Shown: piece by piece, positions 15,462 to 46,757 of the stretch
How positions within the stretch are numbered: position 1 is the stretch's first letter
Layout of the letters: each line of letters begins with the position of its first letter
Source of the DNA: a virus
Taxonomy: Duplodnaviria > Caudoviricetes
Length of the DNA: 64,000 nucleotides
Virus record (IMG/VR): IMGVR_UViG_3300028601_000022
Location: 1 to 64,000 of that record
Reading direction: 5' to 3' (one strand)
Made by a program: the position numbers and the translations under genes
Notes under the pieces: generated by a model
What the model was told of the DNA's origin: nothing
The model's input: the letters and a program-made list of their open reading frames with translations, nothing else
Database searches by the model: none

Positions 15462-18275
15462 CTACACGAGGCTAAACGTAGCCCCCGTGCTGTTAATGGT
15501 GATGCGGCCCCTCATAAGCTCGCCAACCCTTGCGGGCTGAATAGGAACGTCCACGACCATTTCATTGTTGTCAACGACTTCAGGCGTGTTGTTCGAGGTA
15601 TCGCAGATGACCTTGAAGTCATACAAGCCGCGGCGTGCCTTGATGGAAGCAAGGTACGGCGTAAGCTTCGACACCAGCATGGAGCGGGAGAACTCGTCGT
15701 TAATCTCGAATGTGAAGTCCATCAGGAGGTCCTCGATGGCCGGTTCGATAACGATAAGCAGCATACGCACGTTGACGCGGTCAAGCGCCGATGCACGGTT
15801 AAGCAGCGTCTTCTGGCCCCAGATACGAATACCGAAGGTTTCGTGGAAGTCAATGGGGTTGATGCCTGCATCATACAGAGCATCCTCGTCCCCATCATTG
15901 AACTCCCGGCGAACACCGAGGACATTCAAAACACCACGGCGGTTGCCAGCAGGGGCAAACCACGGTTCATAGTTTGCAGCCGTGTAGCTGATTTGTGCTC
16001 CAACGTGGCCTGTGGGAGACACCCAGATTTCCCGGTCGTTGTGTTCATCGTAAATCTTCACATGGGGCGTATAGAGCGCCGCATGCGAAGTAGACGTGAT
16101 AAGGGACTTCCGCCGGTAAGCAATGAGGTCTTCCAGGTAGTTGGAGCTTACTTCGTGTTCGATGGGAGTGGAGAGGATGCCGAGGGTTGCACCACGGGAT
16201 TCGCATACGTCGATAATGGCCTGCTGGTACGCGGGAATACTCCAGCCAGCATCCATGATGACGGTGATGGGGTACCGACGCTTGTTACCAAACAGTTTGA
16301 GCGCAGTGACGCACTCTCCCGTGGTTGCGGCGTGTCCGATGGAACCACCGGTGAGCTTGGCATACGTGGTCTGGTTGCAGGGGAGGACATTCTTGTTCAC
16401 CGCCTTGTTGTCTTTCCAGCGGGCATAGTTGGAAGACTCAAACACCTTCTCAACGTAGATGTTCTGCCCGTAGCCATCCTTGTGGGTTTCGTCACGGGAG
16501 CAGGTCTTCCGTTCCACTTCCAGGTACTGGTCGCCGTACTTCTTGTACAGAATGACGAGGAAAGCACCGGGTTCCTTGACCATATCCGCGCAGGCCTGGT
16601 CAAAGTCATTCCAATCCGCCTCGTCGCCGTAGGGGTAGTGGAACAGCTTATAGTAGACTTCTTCATCCGTCGGGGTGGACGTATGCAGGTAGCCAACGCG
16701 GCGCTTGTAGCCGGTGTACAGTTCATTGTGGGTATCCAGAATATGATGATACTGGTTCTGCAAAGCATCCAGCGTACCAGCATTGAGGATATCCACAGGA
16801 ATACCAGCTTCGGCGTTACCGGCTGTAGCGGCCAGCTTGATGGTATTCGGCGTACTGGTCTTAATGACATAGTACGTTTGACCAGCAACGAGGCCGCCAG
16901 GAAGAGTACCGTCAGAAGACAGCGTAACCGAATAGCCGGTCTCGGTGATGCCATAGAAGGTTTCCGAAACGGCCAGCGAGTCCTTGGACATATCAATCTT
17001 CGGACTGCATGCAACCTGCTTGTTGGTGCAAGTAAGAGAGAGGTCAACACCAGCGGTTGTCCAATCAATAGGCGCACCGCTTTTCTCAAGCGAAAGAGCA
17101 ATGCGGTTGGCTGTAGGGGACTTGATAACGTAGAAGTCCGTATCAGCCGCCATTGCCGGTTCAGGGGCTGTGGTAGAGGCCAGGCGAACCACATCGTTGT
17201 TTGCAACGGCAGCGTAGAACGGAGCATCGACCGTAAAGAGGTCGGTGTCCACGTCCAGCGTTACGTTGGAAGTAACGGCTTTGCCCTGCAAGGAGATGCC
17301 GAAGGTTACCCCGCCAGTGCTGTTAAGGCCAATGGGCTCTTCGGAGAGGGCGTTGGCTTCAGTACGCGCAAGCTGAACCTTGTACTTGTCGGCATTCACG
17401 CCATCCTGCGGAACGACAATGAGGTAGTACGTTTCCGTCAGTTCAAGAGGAAGGCCGCTATCCACAAGGGGGAGGTCCTGGGCATTACCGGTAAGCGTAA
17501 CGGCATCGCCAGTGGCCGCTGTGATATAGAATGCCTTGGGCACATTCAGGTAGTCGCCTTCAATATCCACTGTGAAGGTGGAGTTGAAGCCGGATGCTTT
17601 GCCGTCGCTGGTGTCAAGTTCGTAACCATCAGGGTCGGCGACTGCATACTGCTGTTCACCGTTCACATCGTCGGGGGTGAGCTTGATGGTGACTCCCGTG
17701 CCAGGAGACGTAAACACAATGTAGGTACCGTTGAGCGCATCAGCCTGCGAAGCCGCTACACGGATACCGTACTTGTCTTCGGAGAACTTGACGACAAAGT
17801 AGTTGGTGCTCTCCGCGAGAGGAGCAGGAAGGGAAGCGCCTTCAAACTGAATCACATCACCGTCAGAGAGAGTTTCATACAGGAACTTGCTCCAGGCAGC
17901 CTCTGCATCCGTTGTGGTGCGGAGAAACAGAGAAGACAGGCCCTGATTAACAGAAACAGGCATGGAGGTGACGGGAATGTCCTGGGCAAGATACGCACCA
18001 CCGTAAGTAGCACCGGTGTCAGGGCGGCTAATCCACAGCTTGTTCGACTTTTCCAGGAAGATGCGGGCTTCAAACAGCCCCAGCGGGTCACGGGGAAGAA
18101 TCTTGTCCGTAGACAGAAAGCGCCGGAAAAGTTCGGCTTCCGATGTAACCAGACGGGGAGTAAGCACGTCGCCTTTGGAGGTGTTAAGAACCATAGCACC
18201 GTAGATACCAGGAAAGCTGGGAGTACGGGAACTGAGGTCAATCTCGATAATTTCAACTCTTGCACGACCGTTCAT
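15462..18275 (-). CDS. Tail sheath protein (T4 gp18-like) with four inserted beta repeats
   Basis: PWFAPAGNRRG, GINPI, WGQKT, RVNVRML, DTSNNTPEVVD. Confidence 0.95.
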   Translation of the reverse strand: MNGRARVEIIEIDLSSRTPSFPGIYGAMVLNTSKGDVLTPRLVTSEAELFRRFLSTDKILPRDPLGLFEARIFLEKSNKLWISRPDTGATYGGAYLAQDIPVTSMPVSVNQGLSSLFLRTTTDAEAAWSKFLYETLSDGDVIQFEGASLPAPLAESTNYFVVKFSEDKYGIRVAASQADALNGTYIVFTSPGTGVTIKLTPDDVNGEQQYAVADPDGYELDTSDGKASGFNSTFTVDIEGDYLNVPKAFYITAATGDAVTLTGNAQDLPLVDSGLPLELTETYYLIVVPQDGVNADKYKVQLARTEANALSEEPIGLNSTGGVTFGISLQGKAVTSNVTLDVDTDLFTVDAPFYAAVANNDVVRLASTTAPEPAMAADTDFYVIKSPTANRIALSLEKSGAPIDWTTAGVDLSLTCTNKQVACSPKIDMSKDSLAVSETFYGITETGYSVTLSSDGTLPGGLVAGQTYYVIKTSTPNTIKLAATAGNAEAGIPVDILNAGTLDALQNQYHHILDTHNELYTGYKRRVGYLHTSTPTDEEVYYKLFHYPYGDEADWNDFDQACADMVKEPGAFLVILYKKYGDQYLEVERKTCSRDETHKDGYGQNIYVEKVFESSNYARWKDNKAVNKNVLPCNQTTYAKLTGGSIGHAATTGECVTALKLFGNKRRYPITVIMDAGWSIPAYQQAIIDVCESRGATLGILSTPIEHEVSSNYLEDLIAYRRKSLITSTSHAALYTPHVKIYDEHNDREIWVSPTGHVGAQISYTAANYEPWFAPAGNRRGVLNVLGVRREFNDGDEDALYDAGINPIDFHETFGIRIWGQKTLLNRASALDRVNVRMLLIVIEPAIEDLLMDFTFEINDEFSRSMLVSKLTPYLASIKARRGLYDFKVICDTSNNTPEVVDNNEMVVDVPIQPARVGELMRGRITINSTGATFSLV

Positions 18276-20174: not shown

Positions 20175-21242
20175 CTAGATGCGCTGGCCTTTGACAACGG
20201 AACGGTTGTTCACAACGGCCATCGAGGTGGGCTGCGTCAGGAACCAGCCTTTCTTGGCTTCGCCGAAAGCAGCGCGGTCAACGGGAGTGGCGCTCAGGGG
20301 GCGGGTCAGGATAACGCCGTGGTTCACAGGAGCACTGACGAGGTAGAACTCGCCGTCTTCAATGACGCGGAACTGCGGCTGACGCATGTAGTCCGAGTAG
20401 ATTTTCACGTTGTACAGGGAGCCGATTTCGCCGGTTTCCAGGATTTCACGCTTGGTGACAGGGTCGAACACTTCCTGGAAGGCGGACGACGTGATAATGT
20501 CCTGCATAAGAGTGGAGGACAGAATGCACGTGGTAACGGGCAGGCCTTCGCGGTCAATGAGGTCGCGCATGTGGGCGAAGAACTGGGGCGTAAACGCAGT
20601 GGTGGTCTGCAGGTTGTGACGGGAAGCAGCGGCAGCGTCGGCGCACTTTTTCCAGTAGCGGTCTTCATGCACCATGATGGCTTCGAGGCCTTCTTCATAC
20701 TTTTCTTCAAGAAGGTCTGTGCGCGAGCGCGACATTTCCTTGTTGTCGATAAGCAGGAAGCTGTTCAGGTCGAACTCGTCCAGCAGCAGGCGCTTTTCGC
20801 GGATTTCGGAAGGAACAACCTGAGAGGCCGAAGACATAAGGTATGCAACGACCTGCTTCACCTTCACGGTAACTTCGGGGAAGTCGCCGTTGCCGAGTTC
20901 GCTGGCGAGCAGCAGCTGACGGCAGAAGCCTTCACGGTCGGTGGTTTCTTCAATCTGGGCGGCAAGAATACCACCGAGGAGCTGCATCTGCTGGCCGGAA
21001 TTGTCGGCCATAGCAGCGGCCAGAACGGCCTTGCGGTTGGCGGATTTTTCCTGGCGAATTTCAGCAGTATTTTTATCCAGCGGAGCTTCGCCGGAAAGAA
21101 TTTGCAGGGCTGCAACAATCTGCTGCATGGCGTCCTGTTTGGACGAAGCATTCAGATTCCCTTGGGCGTCAAACAGGGGAGACGCGGAATGCGCGCCGCT
21201 GGTCACGCCAGAAACGATGCGGGGAGACAAGAGGTCTTTCAT
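20175..21242 (-). CDS. Major capsid protein
   Basis: 355 aa, strong codon bias, ILETGEIGSLYNVKI (HK97-fold G-x-L/I-x-G/N-V-x-I), 3' hairpin at 20148-20173, position in head module. Confidence 0.8.
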   Translation of the reverse strand: MKDLLSPRIVSGVTSGAHSASPLFDAQGNLNASSKQDAMQQIVAALQILSGEAPLDKNTAEIRQEKSANRKAVLAAAMADNSGQQMQLLGGILAAQIEETTDREGFCRQLLLASELGNGDFPEVTVKVKQVVAYLMSSASQVVPSEIREKRLLLDEFDLNSFLLIDNKEMSRSRTDLLEEKYEEGLEAIMVHEDRYWKKCADAAAASRHNLQTTTAFTPQFFAHMRDLIDREGLPVTTCILSSTLMQDIITSSAFQEVFDPVTKREILETGEIGSLYNVKIYSDYMRQPQFRVIEDGEFYLVSAPVNHGVILTRPLSATPVDRAAFGEAKKGWFLTQPTSMAVVNNRSVVKGQRI

Positions 21243-22070: not shown

Positions 22071-23315
22071 TTAAAACAGGTTCTTACGCATGGTGTCAAG
22101 GTCTACGCCGCCGGGCTTGGCGGAAGCCGTCATGTTGAGGACGCCGAAATTCAGGGTAGGCTTTTCCATCTTCTGCTTGGTGGCGAAGTTTTCGCTTGCA
22201 GTAAGAACGGCGTTGCCTGAAGCCTGCTGGATAAGAGCTTTGGCTTCAACCCGCGCGGCGTCGGTTTTCGTAAACAGTTCCATAGCCTTCGCCATGATGG
22301 TGCCGAACATATCGGAACCGTGAACGGCGAGGGTATTGGAAACAGCGGTCACAGCGCGTTCGCTGTCAACGCCGGAAGCGACAAGCTCGTTCACCAGGGA
22401 GCGGTGCAGAGCGGAGTACACTTCGGGATAGATGCCTTTCGAGCCGCCTTCAACTGCAATCTGGCAGCAGTCAATAAGGCGGGGAATTGCAGTTGCCTGC
22501 AACTTGGCAAGAGCAGCCTGCTCAATGTCGGCCGGCGAAAGCGCCTTTTCCGAGAAGTAGCTGCCGCCGAAAGCTTTTACAGCTGATGCCATACCTTCTT
22601 TTTCGGCTACTTCACTGAAGGCCGAAACGAACAGGGGCTGGGCGAAAAGGGGCTGCATGGAAGTCGGCGCGTTTTCCTTGCGGAAGATAGCAATAGGGTT
22701 GCCCGTGTGAATCGAGGATGCAACCATCGCTGTCGCTTCGCCGGCATTCGTGTCGAGGGCGCTCCATTGCAGGTCGGCGTGAGTGGAAGCATCCAGTTCG
22801 GAGTAGTCCGAGCCGCCTTCACCGTCGCCGTTATTGGCAAGAACGCTATCGGGGTCTTTGCCTTCCCCGGCCCCTTCTTCGTAGCCGTCTTCGGAGCCGT
22901 CTTCGAAGCCGTCACCATCATCCATGTTTTCCGGGTCAAGCCCATCGTCGCCTTCACCATAGCCGTCGTCGCCACCTTCAAGGGTAGTACCGGCCTGGTC
23001 GCAAGCAACGAGTGAGTCACCAGCGCAGTCAGGGCAATACTTGCTTGCAGCAAAGTCGTCCGCGGTTTCATCGGTACCGTCGGCTGCAAACACTGTATCG
23101 CAAGAAACGCACTTGACGTAAATCAGGGGTTTTTCAGGGCTCGCGGTGAGTTCCGCCCGGGAAACAGGTGTGCCCCTTTCAAGGGGCTGGCAGCAGTGAA
23201 TGCAATAAGGGTCTTTCGAGCCGCTTGCAAGCACCATCGCGCTGCCGCAGTGGTCACACTTGTAACTCTGGAAGTAGGAATTACCGCTTGCCTGAATAGT
23301 CAGACGCTTGCTCAC
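22071..23315 (-). CDS. Putative prohead core / scaffold protein with Zn ribbons
   Basis: GTG start with GGAGG; CxxC pairs, acidic linker, many x-x-A|S motifs. Confidence 0.6.
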   Translation of the reverse strand: MSKRLTIQASGNSYFQSYKCDHCGSAMVLASGSKDPYCIHCCQPLERGTPVSRAELTASPEKPLIYVKCVSCDTVFAADGTDETADDFAASKYCPDCAGDSLVACDQAGTTLEGGDDGYGEGDDGLDPENMDDGDGFEDGSEDGYEEGAGEGKDPDSVLANNGDGEGGSDYSELDASTHADLQWSALDTNAGEATAMVASSIHTGNPIAIFRKENAPTSMQPLFAQPLFVSAFSEVAEKEGMASAVKAFGGSYFSEKALSPADIEQAALAKLQATAIPRLIDCCQIAVEGGSKGIYPEVYSALHRSLVNELVASGVDSERAVTAVSNTLAVHGSDMFGTIMAKAMELFTKTDAARVEAKALIQQASGNAVLTASENFATKQKMEKPTLNFGVLNMTASAKPGGVDLDTMRKNLF

Positions 23316-24377: not shown

Positions 24378-24683
24378 TTACGCACCGTGAAGGACATACA
24401 GGATGAACTGGCCCAGAGCACGGTTGCCATCAAAGTCCTTCGGGCTGTTCTGTTCAACATGGAAATAGCCCTCGGAAGGGGAGACCCTGGCATAGCCCCA
24501 GTTCTTGCCGTAAGACCACTTGTAGTCGTCATACGGCTTCATCTGCTTTGCCACCTTTTCCAGAGGCTCCTCAGACCAGTCGAACTTGACGACCTTGCCA
24601 TCGGCTTTCTTTATCCAAAAACCGCTGGCACTGACTACACGCTTTTGCGGGGCCGCTGTAACGATTACATTTACCATTTTCAT
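24378..24683 (-). CDS. Putative internal head protein (leader MKMVNVIVTA|A)
   Basis: AGGAG RBS before ATG 24683; shared leader motif. Confidence 0.65.
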   Translation of the reverse strand: MKMVNVIVTAAPQKRVVSASGFWIKKADGKVVKFDWSEEPLEKVAKQMKPYDDYKWSYGKNWGYARVSPSEGYFHVEQNSPKDFDGNRALGQFILYVLHGA

Positions 24684-24693
24684 AGAGTTACTC

Positions 24694-25065
24694 CTAACCT
24701 TTAGTGCTACTGCTGTAGCGGGTGAAGGACAGATGGTTAGCACCGAGGGTAACAAGATACCGATAGCCACCAACGAGGCCACTCGTGGTTATTGCTTGCG
24801 TCTTAGTGCTTGCATACCACGGGCCGAATTTTTCGCGCAGGCCGCCGGTCTTGTTAAGGGTCTCGATAATGTCCATGGCCCTTATGTTTGGAAGACCGGG
24901 CTTTATAAGGCCAACAAATGACCCGGAATCTTCTTTCGGGTTTGTAGAGGCATCTTCGGCATTGAATGAGTACATACCTGAAAGGGCCTTCACTACAGGG
25001 TCGGCCTGAATATCGGCATTCATGTAGGTAAGAGTGGCTTTGACCACGACTTGTTTCATTTGCAT
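24694..25065 (-). CDS. Putative internal head protein, paralog of 25076..25426
   Basis: MKQVVVKA leader; ADPVV..LS..Y.F, F.PW and LGAN shared with the neighbour. Confidence 0.65.
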   Translation of the reverse strand: MQMKQVVVKATLTYMNADIQADPVVKALSGMYSFNAEDASTNPKEDSGSFVGLIKPGLPNIRAMDIIETLNKTGGLREKFGPWYASTKTQAITTSGLVGGYRYLVTLGANHLSFTRYSSSTKG

Positions 25066-25075
25066 AACTACCATC

Positions 25076-25426
25076 CTACCCAAAAGCGGTATTGCCCTCG
25101 TCTACAAGGACAAAGATGTAGTTGGCACCAAGCTCAATCATATAGCCGTTTTCGGCTGTCTCACCGCGAGTAACAAGCTTGCCTGCGCTGTCCAACTTCC
25201 ACGGCTTAAACTGCTTCTTGAGGCCCGGAAGAGAGTTAAGCCAACGAATTATTGCCGGGAACTCTATCCGGCCAGGCTTAGGCTTCGTTTTGAAGGAGCC
25301 CCTGAATCCAGGAACACCATCATCGGTAACCTGCTCAAAGTCATAGAAGGTAGAAAGACGGCGTACGACAGGGTCGGCAGTGACGGCTGGCACTTGCGCT
25401 ATTACCTTTACTGTAACTTGCTTCAT
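25076..25426 (-). CDS. Putative internal head protein (leader MKQVTVKVIA...VTA|D)
   Basis: Leader motif; paralog pair. Confidence 0.65.
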   Translation of the reverse strand: MKQVTVKVIAQVPAVTADPVVRRLSTFYDFEQVTDDGVPGFRGSFKTKPKPGRIEFPAIIRWLNSLPGLKKQFKPWKLDSAGKLVTRGETAENGYMIELGANYIFVLVDEGNTAFG

Positions 25427-26179
25427 TTACACACCCTCACCCTGGCAGGTGAACTCTGCCGGTATGCGCACGATAGACGCTTCAAAGAAGACCGGAGCAT
25501 GCGCCATCATGTAGTGAAGGACACCGTTTTTCACCTGCCCGTAAGAAGCAAGGTCGGTATAGTTGCAGTCATAACAAGTGCAGGTTCTTTGAACCGCAGG
25601 CCCCTGGATACCACCACAAATGCTGCACTCAAGCTGCAAGGAAGCGCAGCCCATACTGTAGCTGGTGTTGGGGTTGAGGCAGTCTTTTGCCGCCCGTGCA
25701 TTCTTGGAGCGGTCATACGCGGCCAGAATCATAAGACGTGCAACGCCGTATTTTTTGACAGGCAGGAGGCTTGCATCCAGAACAATGCCGAGGCTGCGTG
25801 TTGGGTCGTCATTCTGGTGTTCCTGAAACAGGCATTTGCCAACGTAGGTCTTGTAGCTTTGGCACCCATGCTCAGGAAGAAACCGCAAGAGTTCCCGTGT
25901 AGGAACAGCCTGCATATTGACATTCGGCATGCCAGATACCAGAATCGGTATAAGAGCAAAGTTGTAGTCCTTAATGTCAGGACTGATGTGGTATTCCGAA
26001 GCGGCCGCCTTAAGGCAGGACGTAGACACCGTGGACATGCCAGGAATAAGCTTGCCCATTTCCACATGCGTAACCTGACGGTTACTCGATATGACGGGCA
26101 ACTTCCTGATAGGCATTTCGCTTGAGGCTACAGAGTTTACAGCCGCGCCTGTAAGGATAGCATATTTCTTGCTGTTCAT
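25427..26179 (-). CDS. Prohead (maturation) protease with Zn-finger insertion
   Basis: PN.N, LFQEHQN (His), G.VLDA, YSMGC (Ser), CSIC, FFEASIV..PA. Confidence 0.75.
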   Translation of the reverse strand: MNSKKYAILTGAAVNSVASSEMPIRKLPVISSNRQVTHVEMGKLIPGMSTVSTSCLKAAASEYHISPDIKDYNFALIPILVSGMPNVNMQAVPTRELLRFLPEHGCQSYKTYVGKCLFQEHQNDDPTRSLGIVLDASLLPVKKYGVARLMILAAYDRSKNARAAKDCLNPNTSYSMGCASLQLECSICGGIQGPAVQRTCTCYDCNYTDLASYGQVKNGVLHYMMAHAPVFFEASIVRIPAEFTCQGEGV

Positions 26180-26202
26180 ATTTACTCCAGGAATGAAGGC
26201 AT

Positions 26203-26241
26203 GGTGGATATAGGACTTATTGTATTAAGCCTATATCCACC
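26203..26241. other. Long intergenic hairpin (RNA processing / stability)
   Basis: GGTGGATATAGG...CCTATATCCACC. Confidence 0.6.
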
Positions 26242-26258
26242 TAACAGGGCAGCTGGGC

Positions 26259-26633
26259 CTACTCTTCATAGAGTTTGTCAAAGTCCTTGTCAAGGCCGTA
26301 CAGCTTTCCTTTGTATTCGTAGACCTGAAGGTTATGCAGGTCTATGCTGTCCACGCTAATCCAGGCTACCTTCATCTTCCCTTTGCTGACAACATCGCCC
26401 ATCGAGGCGTTGACGGTAGAACCGTTGGCGGCGAAAGTATAGGTGGTATTCTGATTTATCTTTTTCAGGTCCTGTTTCATAGCTTCAAGGTCAAGGTCAA
26501 CGTGGTTGGCGCTTGACCACTTGAGGTGGTCTTTTACGGTCTGGAGGGGAAAAAGAGCTATCTTCTTACCCGCAGGGGCGGCTTTGGTTTTCTTGCTCGG
26601 AGCAGCCGTTATAACTACGCTAACAACTTTCAT
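26259..26633 (-). CDS. Putative internal head protein (leader MKVVSVVITA|A)
   Basis: AGGT RBS; leader motif. Confidence 0.7.
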   Translation of the reverse strand: MKVVSVVITAAPSKKTKAAPAGKKIALFPLQTVKDHLKWSSANHVDLDLEAMKQDLKKINQNTTYTFAANGSTVNASMGDVVSKGKMKVAWISVDSIDLHNLQVYEYKGKLYGLDKDFDKLYEE

Positions 26634-26659
26634 GGTACACCTACTTTGCGGATTTAAGG

Positions 26660-26965
26660 TTATTCGGGTTCTACGCTGGAAAGACCAACGCTTACGATAA
26701 AGCCGCCGTCGTCCAACGTGAAGGTAAACAGCTTACCGGTGAGGTGCCGCATAACGGTGTTGAGGATAGACAGGCCGGAGATGAACACATCGTCACTGTC
26801 TATACGGAGTACGAGGTTGGGGTCTATCTTTTCCATAGAAAGCAGCTTCTCACAGGCATGCGGGTCGCACTTTTTTCCAGGAAATAGGTCTGAAAAATGA
26901 ATATGCGAAACACAAAAGATGGCATTGAGGATATCCAATACCCGCTGTTCTGTGGCAGTATCCAT
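26660..26965 (-). CDS. Hypothetical protein
   Basis: AGGGG RBS. Confidence 0.6.
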   Translation of the reverse strand: MDTATEQRVLDILNAIFCVSHIHFSDLFPGKKCDPHACEKLLSMEKIDPNLVLRIDSDDVFISGLSILNTVMRHLTGKLFTFTLDDGGFIVSVGLSSVEPE

Positions 26966-27052
26966 TGATTTCCCCTAAGGATTCCTATACGCAAATCTTG
27001 AGTGAAAGGGCCCGGCATCTCATGTTTTGAAACGCCGAGCCCTGTTTAAAGC

Positions 27053-30000
27053 CTAGCCAACCCGAATTTTCAGGTGTTCCCAAGCATCGGTTTTGACCTG
27101 GTCAATGTTAGCAATCGGGCTAACCTTCATGACGGCCCTAAACTTCGCCCTCAGCGCCGCCAGAGTAGGCGCTGAATAGATGTAGTAGCCTTTCTTTCTC
27201 TTGAACATGAAGGTCGTGAGAGTAATGCCCGGATGCTTATCAACATCTGCAACAAAGAACAGGTTAGTTCCAACAACCAAGGGGTACAGGCGCAGTGTGC
27301 CAACGCGTGCCTTCTTCCTGTTTTTAAGCAGGAAGGATTTGAGTCCCTCTTCAGGGAAGGCCGTCTTGTACACACCACGCTTGAACTCGGAAAGTACCTG
27401 CTGAATGTTTGTAGCACAGTCCTTCGGCAGCCTGTACTTGTCGGTGATGTTCTCAATCATCCTCTTGGCGCGATTCAAGCTGGTTACACGGAAAGACCAG
27501 TACTTGCCAGACCAAAGGAACCCGAGGTCTTCAAGTTCCTCATTCCCTTCAGCAGTGAAGGACACCAGTGAGGGTATGTTGTTATAGCTGGCTACCTGCA
27601 CGGGCAAACCGCTATCTGCATCCTCATGAGTAACGGAAGCTTTGCCGGCCTTATCCATCTTCACGGATACTTTGACTGGCTTACTGGAAGACCGGCTTGC
27701 CCTGCCCTTCTTGGGAGTTTTCTCCTCAGGGGTAAAGAAGTCAAAATCATCGTCAAGGTAGGCATCAAGGGCATCCGCTGCCTTGGTTTCCTTAACAGCA
27801 CCACCTGCGTCCTTAACAGGAACCTTAGGTGTCTTGGGAGCCTTCTTCACGACTTCCTTTTCAACCTTAGGCGTCTTGGTGCTTGTATTAAGGTTATCCT
27901 TGCCAGCCTTTGGCTTCTTGACGCTAGGCGAGGTTGCCTTGGTTTCTTTCGCCGGGTCTATGATACCAGTCTCGCCGCCGCGTATGCGGTCAGCGTAGTC
28001 CATCCAAGTACCTAGCGGCAGGTCTTTGAAGAACTTCGTCTTAACCGCAAGTTCGTTACCGTCGTATCGAAGTATGCAGCGGTTCTCGCCAGTGGTCTTA
28101 GACTGCTGGCGTGCATATTTGACACCAACCGACCTGAGGTAGCCCTTAATGTCGCGGGGCTCTCTGGAGTCTGTAGGCCACTGGCCAGGGTCTGTATTGA
28201 CCGGTGCCTTCTTCAGTGCTTTCGCATTCTGCTTCTTAATGCGGTCTGCAATCTTCTGCGCCAGTGTTTCCTTGCGGGAAATGCCAGTACGTATTTCCTT
28301 ACGGGTGAGACCCCTTGCAACCGATCCTATCTTATGCAGAACGAGGGCAGGCTTGGCACTTACATTGGTGCCGCTATTGAGGCGAACAAGAACCGAGCCC
28401 TTACGCACGCTGTAAATACGTCCTTCACCCTGCTCCACACGAACACGAATACCCATAAGGTCTGCTTCGTAGGAAGTAAGGTCAACGGAATCCGTATCAA
28501 CTTCGTCGTCTTCGTCCTCATCCGTGTCCACACCAAGCGTATCCAGATAAGTGAGAAGGGGTTCTTCATCATCCTTCGCCGGGAGAACCATGCCCTTAAT
28601 CCAGGGCACCTGAATTTCTTCAGTACCGATGTTGCTCTTTGCATGCTTCACAGGACGGAACTTGAGGTCACCCTTCTTAAGGGCAGTATCAATCTCTTCC
28701 TGATTCCAGGCATTATATTGGTCAATCTTGTCGAGCAAGTCATTGCCATTGATGATTGGGTCAGTAAACTTGGCCGACAGGGCATCCTCAGAGAACGGAA
28801 CCCGACGGGGCGTATCAACAGGGCAGCCCTCCATAATAATGGAGTTAAGCACCTTCTTGTAGGACTGGAAAGCATACTTGACGCAGTCCGCAGAGTCGTC
28901 CGCGATAACGGTGTCAATGTAAACAGTCTTGCCCTCGTTGAGGTTAACCACCTCGCCGTTTTTGATTTTGACGTGCGGGCGAAAGATACGAGCCTCAAGC
29001 TGCTTCAAAGCGCCAGGTGTCCAGTCAACGTCTGCCGTAATGATACGGTTGGCAACCTGGAGATTCAGGCCTTCCTTGATGCTCTGACCAACGGCAAACA
29101 GAACCTTCAGATTGGACTTCGGGTCCTGGAACTTTGCAATGAGGTCTTTGCGCGAGGCGTCGTAGTAGGCCGCAATGTTCTTGTGTTTAGAGTTAGCCAG
29201 CAGGTGCCGAGCGCCGGACTTGTAATGGACGGCAACAATAACCTTATTGTCGCCAGGCATCTTCAAGGACTTGTCGATAAGCCGGTCTATTTCTGCAATC
29301 TTCGGCGAAACGCCACCGGCCTTTGCATACTTCAAAAGGCGTGAGCTATCAGGCGCCGTAAGGAATATTTCAAGGCGCGCAAGCTTACCAAGCAGCTGGG
29401 TAGGAACGGTTTCAAGGGAGTCGCCTTCATCCTGCATAGCCTGCCAGGCTTTAGCAAGTTTCGGGTCACTCTTAATCTCGTCCATTACCTCAGTTACCAG
29501 CATCTTGTAGACTTTGGCCTGCTCAGGGGTCTGTTCGACACGGCTGAAGGAATACACCTTCTTAGGGAGCAGGGGAGCCCAGTCCTTTTCGCGGAACATA
29601 ATGTAAGAAGAACCAGAACGCAACCTGGCACGAATTTCTTCTGCCATGTTTGCCTTGGGGCCCTTCTTCGGGTTGCCGTCCACGTAGTACCGCTTTTCAA
29701 ATTCAGCACGGGTGCCGACGAGGAGCGGGTCGAGGAACATAAGCTGACCCACAATGTCTTCAGGCTTATTGCTGATAAGGGTACCTGTTGCAATGCGCTT
29801 CCGACGCACGCCACGCGAAACGGCTTGGACAGCCTTAAAGGCTTCCGACTTCATGTTCTTGATATTCTGACTTTCATCAACCGCAACATAGTCAGGGTTG
29901 ATATTCTGCTTCACCCAGTCCGTGGCTTCATAGGTCTTTACCACGTTACCGTCAAGGTCGTAGTCGTCAACGCTGCCGCCCTTTGTAAGCCAGGAGAACG

Positions 30001-31672
30001 AGGTAACGAATATCGTGTTCGCAGGAGCATTGCGCACCCTGCTAGCGAGGTCGTCAAGGTCGTTCCCTTTTTCAACGCTGGTGGTCAGCGCAAAGCCGTT
30101 CACCTGGTTATCTGTAAAGAACGCAATTTCCGAAAGGAATTGGCTAACCAGGGAGTTAGGCATGATAATCAAAGGACGGCGGATGCGCCCGTCATTGAGC
30201 AAGTTCAGGCAATCCTGAATAAGGATACCAGCCTTACCGCCGCCAGTGCCTACGTCAAGAACCGCAGAGTCCTCCGCAACGTCAAGCTGCGAAAGAGCAA
30301 TAGCCTGGTGCGGGAACTGGATAGCGTCCTTGCGCATATTCGGGATTGCAGGAGCATCGTCAGGAGTTCGGCTGTCAAACTTGGTTTTCTTTGCGTTGAC
30401 TTCCTTGGCAATGCCCTTTGCATCCTTACGAAGGGCGCGAAGGGTGTGAACAAGGCCCATGAAAGTCATCCAGTTGGAGAGCTTTATGTTCCCATAGCGC
30501 GAATGACCGTATTCAATGCAGGCATCAATGAACTTGAGGAACTTGGGGTGACCGACAAACTCGGTAAGGTCAACGTCTCGTCCCAACTCCATATAGAAGG
30601 CATCCATCATGACTGCCAGCTCGTCGCTGTATGAGATAGGCAGGTAGGAGGAAAGGCCGCCTGCACCGCTGTCAAAGAAGAATGTGATTTTCTTGTTGAG
30701 CAGGCTCAACTTGATTTTGTTGTCGGGAGGAACCAGGCCAGCAATGCTGTAGGAGCACAGGCCACCCTGCATATCCGTACACACCAGAGTGTTGGTGTCG
30801 GCATCGGGGAACAGAATCACATTCTTAGGAAGGTGAAGTGACCTGCCCTTTGCAACTGCCAACTTCCCGGAGAGCGCATCCCGAATCTGCTGGACAGCGG
30901 TAGCCTGTTCTTCCCTTTCCATGTCGGGTATGTATGAAATGCGACCCGACGGACTGACGTAGGAGCCAGGCTTGAAGCTGTTTGTGAAAGAAATCTTCTT
31001 GGAGAAGAAGGGAGGAACAGGGCGGTCATTTACCAGGTTGTGGTATATGTTGGACAGTACCAGGTCAGCACCGGTGTCCTTTGCCTTCAAGGAATTGAGA
31101 GCAGCCTTGAAGCGGCTAGGGTCAGCCTTGATTGCAAAGTAAGCGGATACCTGGGGGTAGTCATGCTGGTCAAGGAAGTAGACCAGGTTGAGGTCAACTA
31201 TCTTGCCCTGAATAACGCTTACGCTAGCCGGCTTGCTCAGGTCAATAGCCATCAAAAATGGCCGGATACCGTCGCCTACATCGGACGCGATAACTGGCTT
31301 GTTGGTGGCATAGTCACGGTAGATAATGCCACTTGCATATAGCAGGTAGCCGAAGGTGTACTTTTTCGGATTGAGAAGGTCTATATCAACACCGTTCCAC
31401 TCCGACAGAAGCGAAAGGGTAGGGAGGCTCTTCTCTTTGCGCGCGTAGAAGTCCCGAAGGATAGCGCTTCGCGTCAAGAGCCTCTTTGTATCGGTAATGC
31501 TGCGCCGACGACCACCGCGAGCCTTTGAGGGAACAGGGGTATCTGCCTGGCTCACGAACATCTTCGTGGTCAGGAAGTCCTCTATCTTGGTAATGTCAGC
31601 CTGAATAGTAGCCTGCAAGGAGTCTTGAATCTTCTCCTTTGCCGCTACTAATTGGGTCGTAAATATATTCAT
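27053..31672 (-). CDS. Large SNF2-family helicase/ATPase, probable virion-packaged protein
   Basis: Q-motif FPHQ, Walker A GTGGGK, VDESQ, ATGT, EGLNLQ.AN, WTP...QLEARIFR. Confidence 0.88.
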   Translation of the reverse strand: MNIFTTQLVAAKEKIQDSLQATIQADITKIEDFLTTKMFVSQADTPVPSKARGGRRRSITDTKRLLTRSAILRDFYARKEKSLPTLSLLSEWNGVDIDLLNPKKYTFGYLLYASGIIYRDYATNKPVIASDVGDGIRPFLMAIDLSKPASVSVIQGKIVDLNLVYFLDQHDYPQVSAYFAIKADPSRFKAALNSLKAKDTGADLVLSNIYHNLVNDRPVPPFFSKKISFTNSFKPGSYVSPSGRISYIPDMEREEQATAVQQIRDALSGKLAVAKGRSLHLPKNVILFPDADTNTLVCTDMQGGLCSYSIAGLVPPDNKIKLSLLNKKITFFFDSGAGGLSSYLPISYSDELAVMMDAFYMELGRDVDLTEFVGHPKFLKFIDACIEYGHSRYGNIKLSNWMTFMGLVHTLRALRKDAKGIAKEVNAKKTKFDSRTPDDAPAIPNMRKDAIQFPHQAIALSQLDVAEDSAVLDVGTGGGKAGILIQDCLNLLNDGRIRRPLIIMPNSLVSQFLSEIAFFTDNQVNGFALTTSVEKGNDLDDLASRVRNAPANTIFVTSFSWLTKGGSVDDYDLDGNVVKTYEATDWVKQNINPDYVAVDESQNIKNMKSEAFKAVQAVSRGVRRKRIATGTLISNKPEDIVGQLMFLDPLLVGTRAEFEKRYYVDGNPKKGPKANMAEEIRARLRSGSSYIMFREKDWAPLLPKKVYSFSRVEQTPEQAKVYKMLVTEVMDEIKSDPKLAKAWQAMQDEGDSLETVPTQLLGKLARLEIFLTAPDSSRLLKYAKAGGVSPKIAEIDRLIDKSLKMPGDNKVIVAVHYKSGARHLLANSKHKNIAAYYDASRKDLIAKFQDPKSNLKVLFAVGQSIKEGLNLQVANRIITADVDWTPGALKQLEARIFRPHVKIKNGEVVNLNEGKTVYIDTVIADDSADCVKYAFQSYKKVLNSIIMEGCPVDTPRRVPFSEDALSAKFTDPIINGNDLLDKIDQYNAWNQEEIDTALKKGDLKFRPVKHAKSNIGTEEIQVPWIKGMVLPAKDDEEPLLTYLDTLGVDTDEDEDDEVDTDSVDLTSYEADLMGIRVRVEQGEGRIYSVRKGSVLVRLNSGTNVSAKPALVLHKIGSVARGLTRKEIRTGISRKETLAQKIADRIKKQNAKALKKAPVNTDPGQWPTDSREPRDIKGYLRSVGVKYARQQSKTTGENRCILRYDGNELAVKTKFFKDLPLGTWMDYADRIRGGETGIIDPAKETKATSPSVKKPKAGKDNLNTSTKTPKVEKEVVKKAPKTPKVPVKDAGGAVKETKAADALDAYLDDDFDFFTPEEKTPKKGRASRSSSKPVKVSVKMDKAGKASVTHEDADSGLPVQVASYNNIPSLVSFTAEGNEELEDLGFLWSGKYWSFRVTSLNRAKRMIENITDKYRLPKDCATNIQQVLSEFKRGVYKTAFPEEGLKSFLLKNRKKARVGTLRLYPLVVGTNLFFVADVDKHPGITLTTFMFKRKKGYYIYSAPTLAALRAKFRAVMKVSPIANIDQVKTDAWEHLKIRVG

Positions 31673-31675
31673 CCC

Positions 31676-32182
31676 CTAGTCCTCCATGCGGGTAATTTTG
31701 TCCTCAAACAGCGCCTGGGGATTGGATACGAGGGCGTTGAGGTCGCTGGGGCAGAAGGATTCTTTGGACGGGAGGCTGTTGTAGGTAGCTACTACCTCCT
31801 TCAAAAGACACACAGCATACAAGGGCGGCTCAAGACCGCGGATGTATGAGGCATCAATCGCAAAGAACATCTTATTCTTTAACGAATTTTCGATGTGCTG
31901 TTTTGCATCTGCCAACCATTCCACAGGAAGGGGAAATTCCGAGTCCGGAATATAGTACCTGCCATATGCAACAGGGAAGCTCTTGCTCACCGCAGCAACA
32001 AACTCTTCCCTTGAATAGTTCTTCGGGTCAAGGCCAATAGCGCGGGCAATGCCCAAATCACTAAGGGTAATCGGGGTAGTTTTCCCATCGCTGGGTGTGA
32101 AACAGTGGAAGGTCAGGGACACCATGTTGTCCACAACCTCTTTCAACTGCACGGAGTCGTCTGTAAAGTATTTTTCAATCAT
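31676..32182 (-). CDS. Hypothetical protein
   Basis: Tightly coupled in head operon. Confidence 0.65.
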   Translation of the reverse strand: MIEKYFTDDSVQLKEVVDNMVSLTFHCFTPSDGKTTPITLSDLGIARAIGLDPKNYSREEFVAAVSKSFPVAYGRYYIPDSEFPLPVEWLADAKQHIENSLKNKMFFAIDASYIRGLEPPLYAVCLLKEVVATYNSLPSKESFCPSDLNALVSNPQALFEDKITRMED

Positions 32183-32404
32183 TTAGTCCCCCGTTACCTT
32201 AATAGGAACTACTACCCTGTCCCGGTTGCAGTACATCACCTTACGGGTTTTGGAAGCAAGGAATACTTCGCCCATAAGATTACCGCAACGCGGGCACTTG
32301 TGATTACGAATGTTTTCCAGGCTACTGCGCATCGTGAGAGAACCAGCATTGGATGCACCGGCAGTAAGGAGAGCCTTTTCCCAGGGATTCTTCGTTTTAG
32401 CCAT
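32183..32404 (-). CDS. Small Zn-ribbon protein
   Basis: AAGGAG RBS; CPRC...YC; ALLTA|G. Confidence 0.65.
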   Translation of the reverse strand: MAKTKNPWEKALLTAGASNAGSLTMRSSLENIRNHKCPRCGNLMGEVFLASKTRKVMYCNRDRVVVPIKVTGD

Positions 32405-32414
32405 TGTGGTCTCC

Positions 32415-33185
32415 TTATGTAAGGTCACGGATAAGAGATTTCCAGTACTTGATAAGACCGGTTTTCACTTTGTCACGGTTGCCCTTACTAGCCGGAATGC
32501 CAAGAAGCATTTCCGCATATGCAGCAGTCAGGGTATTGCGCAGAAGCAGAACCGGGCGGTTCAGTTCTTTATCAAACTGGACAATGACGTCGGTATTGGT
32601 CTTGACCGGACGGATATACCTTCCCGCTTTACGCTGGAAGTTGCTCTTGACCATAAAGGCACGAAACTCCTTGGAGTCAAATTCAATGCCCTTTTCCAAG
32701 ACCATAACGCGCTTTGAGGTTACCACAAGAGAACCGGGTTTCGGTTCATCAATAGAGGCAAATGTCTCCTTGAGGAACTTAGAAACGATGCCCTTTCGCG
32801 CGCCCTTGCTAAGGAGTGAATCAATAGCATTAAGCTGGGCTACGCGGGCATTTTCAGTCCGGTCTTCAATCCTTTCCTTCGTTTCCTGTGTAACGGTGGC
32901 TGCATTCGCATCAAAGGGCTGCACTTTCCTTTTCAGGCAGTAGTTAACCCAAATAGCAACACAGCAGGCCCATTGCCGCTCCGGTTCCTTCTTGTATCGG
33001 CCCCACACAGACGCATACTTGGTAACAAAGGCTTTCCAATACTTGTCATGTGCCTTAGGGTTTATACCTTCAGGGGGAACCTTCAAAGAAGGAACCGGTG
33101 CCTTGGCTTTTGCAGCAGTGAGGATACTGACTCGGCCAAGGGCAGCAATAAGGTCCGTAAAGCTAACACCAGCAGGAAGTTTCAT
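32415..33185 (-). CDS. Basic hypothetical head-module protein
   Basis: AGGAGG RBS; ILTA|A. Confidence 0.7.
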   Translation of the reverse strand: MKLPAGVSFTDLIAALGRVSILTAAKAKAPVPSLKVPPEGINPKAHDKYWKAFVTKYASVWGRYKKEPERQWACCVAIWVNYCLKRKVQPFDANAATVTQETKERIEDRTENARVAQLNAIDSLLSKGARKGIVSKFLKETFASIDEPKPGSLVVTSKRVMVLEKGIEFDSKEFRAFMVKSNFQRKAGRYIRPVKTNTDVIVQFDKELNRPVLLLRNTLTAAYAEMLLGIPASKGNRDKVKTGLIKYWKSLIRDLT

Positions 33186-33203
33186 ATGCACCTCCTGAGG
33201 ATG

Positions 33204-34004
33204 TTATTTCAAGGACTTGAGGGCCTTCACGTATTCAGGGCCGTAGCATTCAGCCAGGAATTCAAGGATGTCTTCACGGGAGGTGCTGCCATCAAGGGCG
33301 GCGGCTTCGATGATGTTGACGATGGAAGCGGCCGGAAGATAGGCGCTGGCCTTATGGCCACCTTCTTCGATGGTGATGCCAACGGAACTTCCGGTAATGT
33401 CGGTAACTTTGGCAACGTCAATGTAGGGCTTGATGCCGTCTTCTGTTTGCTCGGTAGCAAAGAACAGAACGGTATCGCCAGGGTGCGCGGTCAGCACAAA
33501 GCCGTCAGGCTGAACGCGGGCTTCCTGGGCAACGGAAGCGGTGAGAGCAATGCCCATCACTTCTTCCAGGTCATCATCATTGGCACGCATGAGGTACTGC
33601 TTGCCACCGATTTCCTTGCGTTCCCACACGTTCTGCATTTCCACATCCAGATAGGTGGACGCGGTGATGGCCTGGCATTTCGCCATGTTGGCTTCATCGG
33701 CCGGGCGAACGTGATGGCTGCAACGGTAACCGTGTACCGAAGCAAAGATAAGGTTGGGATGCGCTTCGCTCTGCAGGGGCGTAAACGAAGGGGCAAAGGG
33801 GATGACCTTGTTGTGCAGGTTTTCGTGAATAGCGGAAACGGCGTCAGCAGCCGTGAAGGGAACCAAAGAAGCCACGATAATACGGGCTGTAACCTTGCCG
33901 CAGGGAGTAGCAGCCGCTACCCAGCAGGTGCGGGGCTTGGAGCCGCTCTGATTGCGGAGAGCAGCGCCCATCTTGTCCAGAATGGTATCAGCAACCTTTT
34001 TCAT
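33204..34004 (-). CDS. Hypothetical head-module protein
   Basis: AGGAG RBS before ATG 34004; ALTA|S. Confidence 0.7.
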   Translation of the reverse strand: MKKVADTILDKMGAALRNQSGSKPRTCWVAAATPCGKVTARIIVASLVPFTAADAVSAIHENLHNKVIPFAPSFTPLQSEAHPNLIFASVHGYRCSHHVRPADEANMAKCQAITASTYLDVEMQNVWERKEIGGKQYLMRANDDDLEEVMGIALTASVAQEARVQPDGFVLTAHPGDTVLFFATEQTEDGIKPYIDVAKVTDITGSSVGITIEEGGHKASAYLPAASIVNIIEAAALDGSTSREDILEFLAECYGPEYVKALKSLK

Positions 34005-34041
34005 GTGTATCTCCTGAAAGTTTGAATGCGTGTGCGGAAGC

Positions 34042-34650
34042 CTAGGCCAAGGACTTTTTGAGCAAGCCATCAATGTACTTCTGCAGGACCTTGGTGCGGG
34101 AATCGTACTGGTCAGCACCAATGCTGGCAAGGAGAGCCGCCGGTATGGTGAGGGTAAGGTCAACAGAAACAGACGGCTTCGTTGCAGTGGGCATGGTCAC
34201 ATTGTAGGTAACCAGGTCCCTGTATTCCTTGCGGAGTTCAAGGGAGAACGCGCCGGACATTTCCGAGTAGTCGTCACGGGCTTCCGTTTCAAACGGAATA
34301 TGCACATCCACGCTGGCCGAGCCATCGCGCTCAAAGAACATATTGGTGATAGAGGCTTTGCCCTGCGTAAGGGCGTTGCCCAGGTTGAAGTTCGCCATTT
34401 CCACAAGGCTCTGGACTTCGCGCACGGCAAGACCGAGATAGTAGGCCTGCTTGTCAGGCTCCATCGTTTCAATGCCGCTGGTCTGAAGCTCTTTGGATTC
34501 GGCGTCTTCCGCCTTTGTTACGCTTTCAACAATAGAAGAGGCGACCAAGGCCGCAATATACGACCGCTTTCGCGCCGGCTTCTTGGTTTTCTTTTCGCTT
34601 CCCGTAAGCGCGGCCTTTACGTTAGCCGAGATAATGGACTGTACACTCAT
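34042..34650 (-). CDS. Hypothetical head-module protein
   Basis: GAGG RBS; IISA, LVA|S. Confidence 0.7.
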   Translation of the reverse strand: MSVQSIISANVKAALTGSEKKTKKPARKRSYIAALVASSIVESVTKAEDAESKELQTSGIETMEPDKQAYYLGLAVREVQSLVEMANFNLGNALTQGKASITNMFFERDGSASVDVHIPFETEARDDYSEMSGAFSLELRKEYRDLVTYNVTMPTATKPSVSVDLTLTIPAALLASIGADQYDSRTKVLQKYIDGLLKKSLA

Positions 34651-34701
34651 AGCAACCTCGATATTATCGGTTATAGGCAAGTGTTTATGCCATGCAAAAC
34701 T

Positions 34702-35307
34702 TTAGGATCGGGCAAACTTGATAATAGACTTCTTCATTCTCCCCCGCATGCCTGTAATTTTCCCTTCAAGGGAGGCGCCGTACTTTCGATAGGCTTCTGT
34801 CATTGCCTTTTCGAGCCGTTTGTACTTCTTTTCATCATCACCAGCATGCTTTTCGAGGGAGTCCTTGATGTGCGAACCGAGGTCAAGGAGAGACCGGTCT
34901 AAGAAGGGCTTCATTACCTCCTCGAAAAGGGAGTCGGCAAGCTCCTCATAATCAAAGGCATCTTCAATTGCCTTTGTGAGGTTCTGAATATCAGAAACCA
35001 ACCGAGTCAGCGCATACACGTTGCTCGGGCACGGTTTGGCTTTGAATGCACCTCGTGCCGTAGCCAGCGTTGCAATCAATACCTTGCGCATGGCTTTCAG
35101 CAGGTCCAGGTTGGTAACGACATCGTCCATCGCAAGGTCGGAGAGCTTGTCGAGTGCCTCTGCATACTCGGTACTCAATTTCTCCCTGTCGCCCTTCTTT
35201 TCAAAGCGGTTCTTGCCAAGCCGCTTCTTTTTCTTTTTGCCAGGTTCCCCTTCCTCGTAGTAAGAAGGTGGAATAGAGGATTCAAAGTCAATCTTTCTTG
35301 CAGCCAT
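34702..35307 (-). CDS. Helical protein, possible terminase small subunit
   Basis: GGAGG RBS; NVYALTRLVSDIQ helix pattern; function tentative. Confidence 0.45.
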   Translation of the reverse strand: MAARKIDFESSIPPSYYEEGEPGKKKKKRLGKNRFEKKGDREKLSTEYAEALDKLSDLAMDDVVTNLDLLKAMRKVLIATLATARGAFKAKPCPSNVYALTRLVSDIQNLTKAIEDAFDYEELADSLFEEVMKPFLDRSLLDLGSHIKDSLEKHAGDDEKKYKRLEKAMTEAYRKYGASLEGKITGMRGRMKKSIIKFARS

Positions 35308-35350
35308 ACATTCCCTCCCTGAGAGTATATGCTCGGATTCGTAGGGCCAG

Positions 35351-35443
35351 TTAGGGCTTCACAAGAGCAACAGCCTTATGCAGGTCTTCAATGGAAGCTG
35401 CCTTGGCATCCGAAGAAACCACTTTTACTGTAACAACTTTCAT
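35351..35443 (-). CDS. 30-aa micro-protein consisting of the shared leader (MKVVTVKVVSSDA...)
   Basis: AGGGA RBS; leader motif. Confidence 0.45.
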   Translation of the reverse strand: MKVVTVKVVSSDAKAASIEDLHKAVALVKP

Positions 35444-35450
35444 GAGGTCC

Positions 35451-35729
35451 CTACTTGCCGATGCGCTCTTTCTTCGGCGCATGCTTGATATTGGAGAAGC
35501 CGCCCTTCTTGCCTTTCTTGTCGGTACGGGCACCCAAGGACTTCGAGAGCTTGTTAAGGGCGGAGGTCGCCTCTTCAACAAGGGCCAGGGCTTCTTTGGA
35601 CTTGGCCTTTTTCAGCTTAGGGCTGACACGGGTATAGGCCTTGAAAAAAGCCGACACAGTATCGTTGGCCTTTGCAGTAAGGTCTACCGAATCCACAGAA
35701 GCAACCACGGTAACAGAAACGGTTTTCAT
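35451..35729 (-). CDS. Basic putative internal head protein (leader MKTVSVTVVA|S)
   Basis: AAGGAG RBS before ATG 35729. Confidence 0.65.
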   Translation of the reverse strand: MKTVSVTVVASVDSVDLTAKANDTVSAFFKAYTRVSPKLKKAKSKEALALVEEATSALNKLSKSLGARTDKKGKKGGFSNIKHAPKKERIGK

Positions 35730-45975: not shown

Positions 45976-45984
45976 GGAGCTAAC

Positions 45985-46755: not shown

Positions 46756-46757
46756 GC

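Follow-up and report, generated by a model that had tools for sequence, protein, structure and literature searches.

The head module and its leader genes

The window analysed here covers the initial 64 kb of a viral contig of 142,806 bases (IMG/VR record IMGVR_UViG_3300028601_000022). Around the gene for its prohead (head maturation) protease lie several genes for small proteins, termed M proteins here, which start with a common short leader, M-K-x-V-x-V-x-[VI]-x-A, and this leader is the subject of the present analysis. The genes concerned and the head genes beside them are given below; coordinates are window positions unless marked as contig positions, all of the genes M1 to M6 are located on the minus strand, and an arrow marks the putative end of the leader (h, hydrophobic residue; x, any residue; aa, amino acids; ORF, open reading frame; pI, isoelectric point).

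24378..24683, minus strand: M1, 101 aa, pI 9.1, leader MKMVNVIVTA↓A, 24.4 bits in the leader matrix
24694..25059, minus strand: M2, 121 aa, paralogue of M3, shortened leader MKQVVVKA↓T (start MKQVVVKATL), 11.9 bits
25076..25426, minus strand: M3, 116 aa, leader MKQVTVKVIA↓Q, 7-residue linker, body from a conserved DPV..LS
25427..26179, minus strand: prohead (head maturation) protease, 250 aa, phrog_18299 (E 7.5e-40), no Pfam family
26259..26633, minus strand: M4, 124 aa, leader MKVVSVVITA↓A, then a variable Lys/Ala/Pro-rich linker
35351..35443, minus strand: M5, a 30-codon mini-ORF consisting of the leader MKVVTVKVVS↓S plus 20 residues, 18.2 bits
35451..35729, minus strand: M6, 92 aa, pI 10.2, leader MKTVSVTVVA↓S, which ends in a perfect h-x-A↓S, 19.4 bits
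contig 67935-68288 (= L016:7935-8288), minus strand, outside the window: M7, 117 aa, MKVSQVTIVAAPTADPV, paralogue of M2 and M3, about 4 kb upstream of the portal gene
22071..23315, minus strand: scaffold-like protein, 414 aa, with an N-terminal double zinc ribbon, an acidic middle and a helical C-terminal part
20175..21242, minus strand: major capsid protein, 355 aa, phrog_2522 (E 7e-64)

Read along the minus strand, the genes of the head module are M4, protease, M3, M2, M1, a 176-aa ORF, a 57-aa ORF, the 414-aa scaffold-like protein, a virion structural protein and the capsid protein, with M3 starting directly past the stop codon of the protease gene. All seven leader genes adjoin head genes (protease, scaffold, capsid protein or portal). 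The bodies of the M proteins are basic (pI 8.5-10.2), and searches of Pfam and PHROGs returned no family for any of them. The ORF just upstream of M7 (contig 68298-68564, MPVTIQIKRR..) likewise has a strand of alternating hydrophobic residues at its start.

With the major capsid proteins of the jumbo phages PaBG and Lu11, the capsid protein shares about 35% identity. The protease has 30-36% identity with enzymes annotated as head maturation proteases in jumbo phages of Pseudomonas (putida) and Xanthomonas, and 34-91% with its metagenomic relatives. At the nucleotide level, blastn of the head module against cultured phages gave no match. A single-protein scan of viral contigs with the protease as query returned nothing either. 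Contigs of relatives with 145,144 and 141,665 bases suggest that the genome measures some 143-145 kb, thus belonging to a phage that is large but not strictly jumbo.

The initial annotation had listed six MK-x-V-x-V N-termini, and all six were recovered, each with an ATG behind a Shine-Dalgarno (SD)-like sequence. In a six-frame translation of the whole contig the pattern MK.V.V.[VIAL] occurred exactly six times, always at one of these ATG starts, and its core K.V.V.[VIAL] occurred internally only three times in 43,519 residues. The motif is carried by six of the 26 MK-starting proteins against 0.036 expected from composition, which corresponds to a binomial p of about 2e-12, a value that overstates independence, as M2 and M3 are paralogues. 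With a weight matrix trained on the leaders of other phages only, exactly seven starts were obtained at 11.9-28.6 bits; the runner-up among 10,040 candidate starts reached 4.9 bits, and the background mean was -20.6 bits. This genome-wide search of N-termini extended the set to seven by adding M7. The valine codons vary among the members (GTA, GTC, GTT and GTG), as do the other codons of the leader, and because synonymous codons differ in this way the leader is conserved at the protein level. The mini-ORF M5 starts and stops on its own, is followed by a 43-nt spacer with a strong SD sequence and lies in a frame unlike that of the next gene, which rules out that it represents the frameshifted or split leader of the downstream 201-aa protein.

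Apart from one pair of paralogues, the bodies behind the leaders had been described as unrelated. This stood for M1, M4 and M6, in which similarity is found in the leader only, and was amended for M7, which is a third member of the M2/M3 family. M2 and M3 share 35% identity (E 9e-12), and M7 scored 92.8 bits against the family profile. By profile search of 1.84 billion cluster representatives, 19 members of this family were found; its body of about 100 residues starts with D-P-V..L-S and ends with Y-x-h-E-L-x-A-N-Y-I-x-V, a description that fits only M2, M3 and M7 among the M proteins. When aligned by hhalign to the 20-sequence M3-family profile, M1 matched with residues 1-19 only, M4 with residues 1-15 only and M6 with residues 1-22 only, and between different bodies the aligned parts were likewise confined to residues 1-8, 1-15, 1-19 and 1-22. 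No usable match for M1 or M6 was present in the ESM Atlas, and no viral-contig relatives were found for P0029 and P0032. Fold searches with a model of M3 returned nothing significant: the best E-value in Foldseek searches of PDB and BFVD was 0.02, and the best VIA-wide Z score was 6.1 (DcrB), within the range of the background.

Leader conservation and the proposed protease rule

In protein M4, the residues Met1, Lys2, Val4, Val6, Ile8 and Ala10 are invariant in orthologues down to 44% identity. Towards the most distant of these orthologues, the leader is 78-89% identical, as opposed to 20-27% in the linker, where indels occur, and 46-47% in the body. The M3 family displays the same order, with 51% identity in the leader versus 32% in the body and a linker of 5-20 residues. 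Most members of the M2/M3/M7 family read MK-x-V-x-V-x-h-x-A, then a linker of this length, then the body start D-P-V..L-S. One member of the M3 family, P0035, has no leader and starts straight at the body with S-D-P-V, and P0027, an orthologue of M2, has the leader at full length (MKQVQVTVKA↓A). An AlphaFold2 model of M3 based on the family alignment reached a predicted local distance difference test (pLDDT) score of 80.8 overall. Its body (residues 18-110) was modelled with confidence, at 80-93 over residues 21-110, whereas residues 1-13, comprising the leader, were unstructured, unpacked and scored about 49; the strand is therefore unlikely to be part of a shared fold. These results support that the leader is a separable and selected N-terminal module on proteins without detectable body homology.

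The longest contigs listed for M3-family members and M4 orthologues have the same sizes as those listed for relatives of the protease (67,803, 33,978, 22,456, 11,309 and 2,267 bases). If they are the same contigs, a phage with a 91%-identical protease has an M4 orthologue at just 44%, and family members remain beside the protease, which would point to rapid turnover of the cargo. That the cargo may be exchangeable is suggested only by this fast divergence of the bodies and by differing gene sets in relatives; an actual swap of modules was not observed.

A candidate rule for the neighbouring protease emerged from the scaffold-like protein. Nine [LIVMFY]-x-A-S sites occur in it where 1.21 would be expected (p 5e-6), which makes it the most enriched of the 149 predicted proteins, and its homologue at the syntenic locus L002 (31% identical) contains 14 h-x-A-S sites against 1.44 expected (p 5e-10), ranking first among the ORFs of that locus. 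The residue at P3 is hydrophobic in 9 of 11 AS dipeptides of the scaffold (p 1e-4) and in 14 of 15 of the L002 scaffold (p 2e-7), so that the enrichment does not reflect a dipeptide bias; conversely, of the h-x-A strings in the two proteins, 9 of 21 and 14 of 27, respectively, have Ser as the next residue. In the major capsid protein, a putative maturation junction reads ..G28-N-L-N31-A32↓S33, in which G28, N31 and A32 are invariant across seven capsid proteins at 25-43% identity. All seven have a variable, indel-rich stretch of 30-45 residues at the start, then the invariant G-x-[LIFY]-N-A, then S, H, Q or G and a conserved helix, and the invariant string accordingly looks like a maturation junction. 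Based on the enrichment in the scaffold, the bias for a hydrophobic P3 and the invariant capsid junction, cleavage by the prohead protease probably follows the rule hydrophobic-x-Ala↓Ser (with Ser or another small residue at the last position), and the scaffold-like protein is likely to be a substrate with multiple sites. For this group of phages, the PaBG paper contains no data on processing.

The second most enriched protein, with four h-x-A-S sites against 0.69 expected (p 0.005), is encoded close to M5 and M6:

33204..34004, minus strand: protein of unknown function, 266 aa, phrog_17573 (unknown function), no Pfam family

In the same neighbourhood, a further protein of unknown function (34042-34650, minus strand) displays the sequence IAALVA↓SS at residue 35. 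Both may be additional substrates of the protease or head proteins.

The scaffold-like gene is positioned upstream of the genes for the 'virion structural protein' and the major capsid protein. The same position is occupied by PaBG gp082 and JA29 gp132, both annotated as 'ATPase', and the scaffold-like protein itself weakly matches a PHROG carrying this annotation; for the syntenic PaBG and JA29 genes the label is probably wrong. Residues 1-100 of the scaffold harbor two zinc-ribbon-like CxxC...CxxC units, which also occur in the L002 homologue and are unusual for a scaffold. The protein starts with MSKRLTIQA↓S, a shorter strand of a character similar to the leader.

Leader ends were tallied over 28 unique sequences (the phage's own proteins, orthologues and family representatives), 20 of which show h-x-h-x-h-x-[AS]. 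In 18 of these 20 the leader ends at residue 10; P1 is Ala in 19 of 20, and P3 is V, I or L. The string h-x-A alone is too common for a statistical test, and cleavage after residue 10 would be a consistent reading that fits the proposed rule. A second perfect site, VSA↓S, occurs in M1 at residues 17-20. The cleavage sites originally proposed for M2 (IQA↓D) and M3 (VTA↓D) were not upheld, as relatives have K, E, R or G in front of D-P, a position that is variable in the family, and h-x-A at residues 8-10 is conserved instead. A Glu-type cleavage site as in T4 or phiKZ is ruled out, since none is present and the leaders of all members are devoid of Glu.

Leader arrays in relatives and candidate explanations

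Although the strict MKxVxVxV motif was not found in distant relatives, other variants of the leader were present there. In L006, which is part of a complete genome of 319.5 kb (G001) and whose protease is 36% identical, seven consecutive leader genes follow from about 1 kb downstream of the protease. Their starts are MKIKVFVSQS, MKIQVMLSES, MKIKVFISSS, MKILVSLCTS, MKVNILISES, MKIRVFTSTS and MKIRVFISES, giving the consensus MKI-x-V-F-I-S-x-S, and one upstream gene starts with MKKAKLFLSTS. The bodies of these proteins measure 110-406 aa, have mostly a pI of 9.3-10.3 and show no mutual similarity. A degenerate DNA pattern for this leader gave 10 matches genome-wide, seven of them within one 4.6-kb stretch, versus none for a reversed control. 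The array of seven or eight leader genes flanking the protease occupies L006:9253-16773 (plus strand), and an eighth or ninth copy (MKILVSVSAS) is located at G001 196023 (minus strand). A 306-aa ORF beside the L006 protease (10606-11526) contains the HExxH-like string THELAH.

Arrays of the type MK-h-x-[IV]-S-L-[SA] surround the proteases of L003, L005, L008 and L013. In the 190.9-kb record of L003 (G002) the corresponding pattern gave seven matches and its control none. Three of the matches are near the protease; the other four make up a second cluster at G002 45955-50464 (minus strand), far from the protease, of ORF starts of the MK-L-x-V-S-L-S type. Judged by their leaders, the arrays of distant relatives (MKIKVFISSS and MKIFISLAS types) appear to be an independent replication of the leader design.

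We favor, with a probability of roughly 0.6, the explanation that M-K-x-V-x-V-x-[VI]-x-A acts by analogy with the capsid-targeting sequence (CTS) of phage T4, that is, as a targeting and processing propeptide for internal head proteins. The leader would form a beta-prone strand with one hydrophobic face (V4, V6, V/I8 and A10) that docks the small basic M proteins into the core of the assembling prohead. After assembly of the shell, the neighboring prohead protease would remove the tag after residue 10 (residue 19 in M1), and the mature basic proteins would remain free in the head together with the DNA, possibly to be ejected into the host. What the sequences show is the shared and selected module, its layout of leader, variable linker and body, its linkage to head genes and the h-x-A-S motif of the scaffolds and the capsid protein, whereas targeting, the receptor, the bond that is cut, and what becomes of the cargo and what it does are inferred. 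The initial proposal of a different CTS that loads cargo into the head is supported in part, by the separable, selected module, the linkage to head genes, the unpacked leader, its h-x-A end, the T4-like layout and the arrays in relatives; its sites IQA↓D and VTA↓D did not hold, and an anti-defense role of the cargo found no support. Nothing points to the latter, as the bodies match no family or fold, and such a role is pure conjecture.

Several points weigh against targeting and processing. The phage is uncultured, and its leader proteins are known here from their genes alone. A search of PDB sequences with a profile of the protease produced no match to a solved protease, and its chemistry and specificity are inferred only from the substrates. 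The AlphaFold2 model of M4 (pLDDT 49.6) is too poor to place the leader as free or packed. The residue following the leader is Ser in 4 of the 20 tallied sequences, besides Ala in eight, Gln in three, Thr and Leu in two each and Arg in one, whereas Ser dominates at the scaffold sites, which leaves a mismatch at P1'. The spacing between the hydrophobic positions and the small residues is not the same in the relatives, so that no single common scissile position can be assigned. Finally, no arrays by the protease were found in the closest syntenic relative L002 or in the cultured phages PaBG, Peetri, PhiXhv-12, BCSR5 and Dickeya JA29, indicating that the leader system is dispensable and lineage-specific.

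Instead of being removed, the leader might serve as a permanent assembly strand that is kept on the mature proteins, with leaders pairing mutually or with a virion protein by beta-augmentation to form a hetero-oligomeric inner core or another virion substructure. The V-x-V-x-V pattern has a strong tendency to form beta-strands and to aggregate, and the leader being free of the body in the M3 model, the adjacency to head genes, the mostly non-Ser P1' after A10 and the leader-like start of the scaffold itself would all agree with such a role. However, the near-invariant small residue 10 and the hydrophobic residue 8 fit the motif of the protease as seen in the scaffold and the capsid protein, and a highly variable, indel-rich linker is typical of a tether that is to be cut. 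In addition, a family member entirely without leader (P0035) exists, and T4 provides a precedent with the same 10-residue geometry. We consider a permanent strand to be unlikely.

The position of all seven genes in head-gene neighborhoods, together with the L006 and L003 arrays, which again flank the protease, makes it decidedly improbable that the leader is a tag for a machine other than the prohead, such as a recognition site for a chaperone or host protease, a secretion or sorting signal, or a RiPP (ribosomally synthesized and post-translationally modified peptide)-style leader for the radical-SAM enzymes that the phage encodes at about 80-87 kb of the contig. Such a tag would be compatible with the present data, in which nothing links the M proteins physically to the capsid. 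When bound by a RiPP recognition element, a leader peptide forms an additional beta-strand, a mode that would suit the M leaders. A RiPP precursor leader was nevertheless rejected, since the radical-SAM cluster is at least 45 kb away from the leader genes and the bodies are predicted to be folded proteins of 90-125 aa, not peptide cores. As far as inspection of the residues goes, a Sec or lipoprotein signal peptide is disfavored too: the leader is too short and too polar-interrupted, its seven-residue hydrophobic alternation being broken by K, T, S or N, with linkers of polar or charged character behind it.

Common descent alone, with the seven proteins as far-diverged paralogues of one small protein and the strand as the best-conserved part of a shared fold, has very little to recommend it beyond the true paralogy of M2, M3 and M7, the small and basic character of all bodies, a beta-hairpin-like end (Y-x-h-h-x-x-G-x-x-h-h-h) that several bodies share by eye, and the frequency of tandem duplication in phage head modules. 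Profile-profile comparison revealed no similarity of the bodies of M1, M4 and M6 to the M3 family, the leader is outside the confidently predicted fold of M3, and the length of the linker is unconstrained. Moreover, in L006 leaders of one kind are found on bodies that differ widely in length and are dissimilar to each other.

A nucleotide or translational feature, with the peptide as by-product of a shared 5' coding sequence that boosts initiation or of a mobile promoter/UTR (untranslated region) cassette, is extremely improbable, as the AAA second codon in six of the seven members and the SD-like sequences of all (often TAGG(T/A)G) are outweighed by freely varying valine and intervening codons, upstream regions of 25 nt without a common block, conservation of the motif at the protein level in relatives with different DNA, and a promoter and terminator scan at background.

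Beyond the phage studied here, the targeting and processing scheme can be extended, tentatively and at somewhat less than even odds, to the large phages related to PaBG and Lu11 as a whole. These would share a family-wide, lineage-variable mode of capsid loading, in which MK-(h-x)3-small leaders are placed on arrays of fast-evolving, mostly basic and otherwise unrelated proteins and are released by an assemblin-like h-x-Ala↓Ser protease; the cargo would include injected takeover or anti-defense effectors, and the tag would be portable to foreign proteins. If this is true, the tag is a sequence handle by which internal or injected proteins of uncultured large phages can be listed, including candidate anti-defense and takeover factors that are otherwise unannotated, and it may serve as a short tag for putting foreign proteins into such capsids.

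Further features of the region comprise the following:

15462-18275: tail sheath
62136-63893: portal, 585 aa

The portal ORF of L002 (L002:6341-9865, plus strand) has 1174 aa, versus 585 aa here, and includes two inserts that start with CLSGDTLIST and end with ..VVKNC and ..VVHNS; these look like inteins. Between the two groups of leader genes in the head region lies the gene for a 1539-aa SNF2-family helicase (27053-31672, minus strand; PF00176, PF00271), itself without a leader, whose position recalls large capsid-packaged enzymes such as DarB of phage P1. Beside large fiber-like genes, two tandem genes (45208-45975 and 45985-46755, plus strand) encode proteins of 255 and 256 aa with near-identical N-termini (MANINLVNLNDAVYRMLNPA..) and are probably simple tandem paralogues.

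Comparison with known systems

In T4, the CTS is located on IPI, IPII, IPIII and Alt and is removed by the prohead protease gp21 (Mullaney & Black 1996); it comprises 10 residues with targeting determinants at positions 4 and 7 and processing determinants at positions 8 and 10, and the internal proteins are basic, present in about 300 copies and variable between related phages (PMC9026906). The M leader resembles it as an N-terminal tag of about 10 residues that starts with MK on small basic proteins with dissimilar mature parts, and its conserved positions 8 and 10 would likewise correspond to P3 and P1 of the motif proposed for the cognate protease. In both cases the cargo is poorly conserved among relatives and its genes are near those of the head core. 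However, MKTYQEFIAE and MKxVxVxVxA have no similarity beyond MK, the putative P1 residue is Ala here and Glu in T4, and the protease of this PaBG/Lu11-related phage, which is known from sequence alone, falls into a different family (phrog_18299, no Pfam match). Homology to the T4 CTS with its gp21-type (L/I)-x-E site is ruled out, and because no leader contains Glu and nothing but MK is shared, the leader is, on its residues, an analogue and not a homologue of the T4 CTS. What is added here is the MKxVxVxVxA variant of such leaders and a candidate Ala-type cleavage rule. If the targeting and processing explanation is correct, capsid-targeting leaders are no peculiarity of T4 but recur in a second, unrelated head-assembly lineage with another tag and another protease rule.

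For the anti-restriction protein DarB of phage P1, an N-terminal signal of less than 30 residues is sufficient for loading into the capsid (PMC9024508). The M leader would be similar as an N-terminal capsid-loading signal, but the Dar proteins of P1 have no consensus leader, while here one consensus occurs on seven proteins and ends in a putative protease site. The head proteins gp225 and gp45 of the giant phage SPN3US have N-terminal propeptides of 20-24 residues, which are cut by gp245 at A-X-E (PMC10052503). Common to both would be short N-terminal propeptides that the prohead protease removes from head proteins in a large myophage, and a motif derived from many sites, including those in scaffold-like proteins; in contrast, the last residue of the SPN3US motif is Glu and a leader consensus common to its propeptides is not reported, as opposed to the putative P1 Ala and the conserved strand of the leader here.

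Herpesvirus assemblin cleaves its maturation and release sites at (V/L)-x-A↓S/T, for example at YLQA-T and VQA-S of pseudorabies virus (PrV) (PMC4498786). The hydrophobic-x-Ala↓Ser proposed for the phage protease has the same shape, and in both systems the scaffold would be the main substrate; as assemblin is the enzyme of a eukaryotic virus, the resemblance concerns the motif only. If the proposed rule holds, it constitutes a further functional parallel between phage prohead proteases and assemblin. A similar principle is known from encapsulins, where short terminal cargo-loading peptides direct varied cargo into a shell of the HK97 fold. The M leaders share with these the short terminal peptide on varied cargo, but the encapsulin peptides are usually C-terminal, are not removed and bind the shell protein directly.

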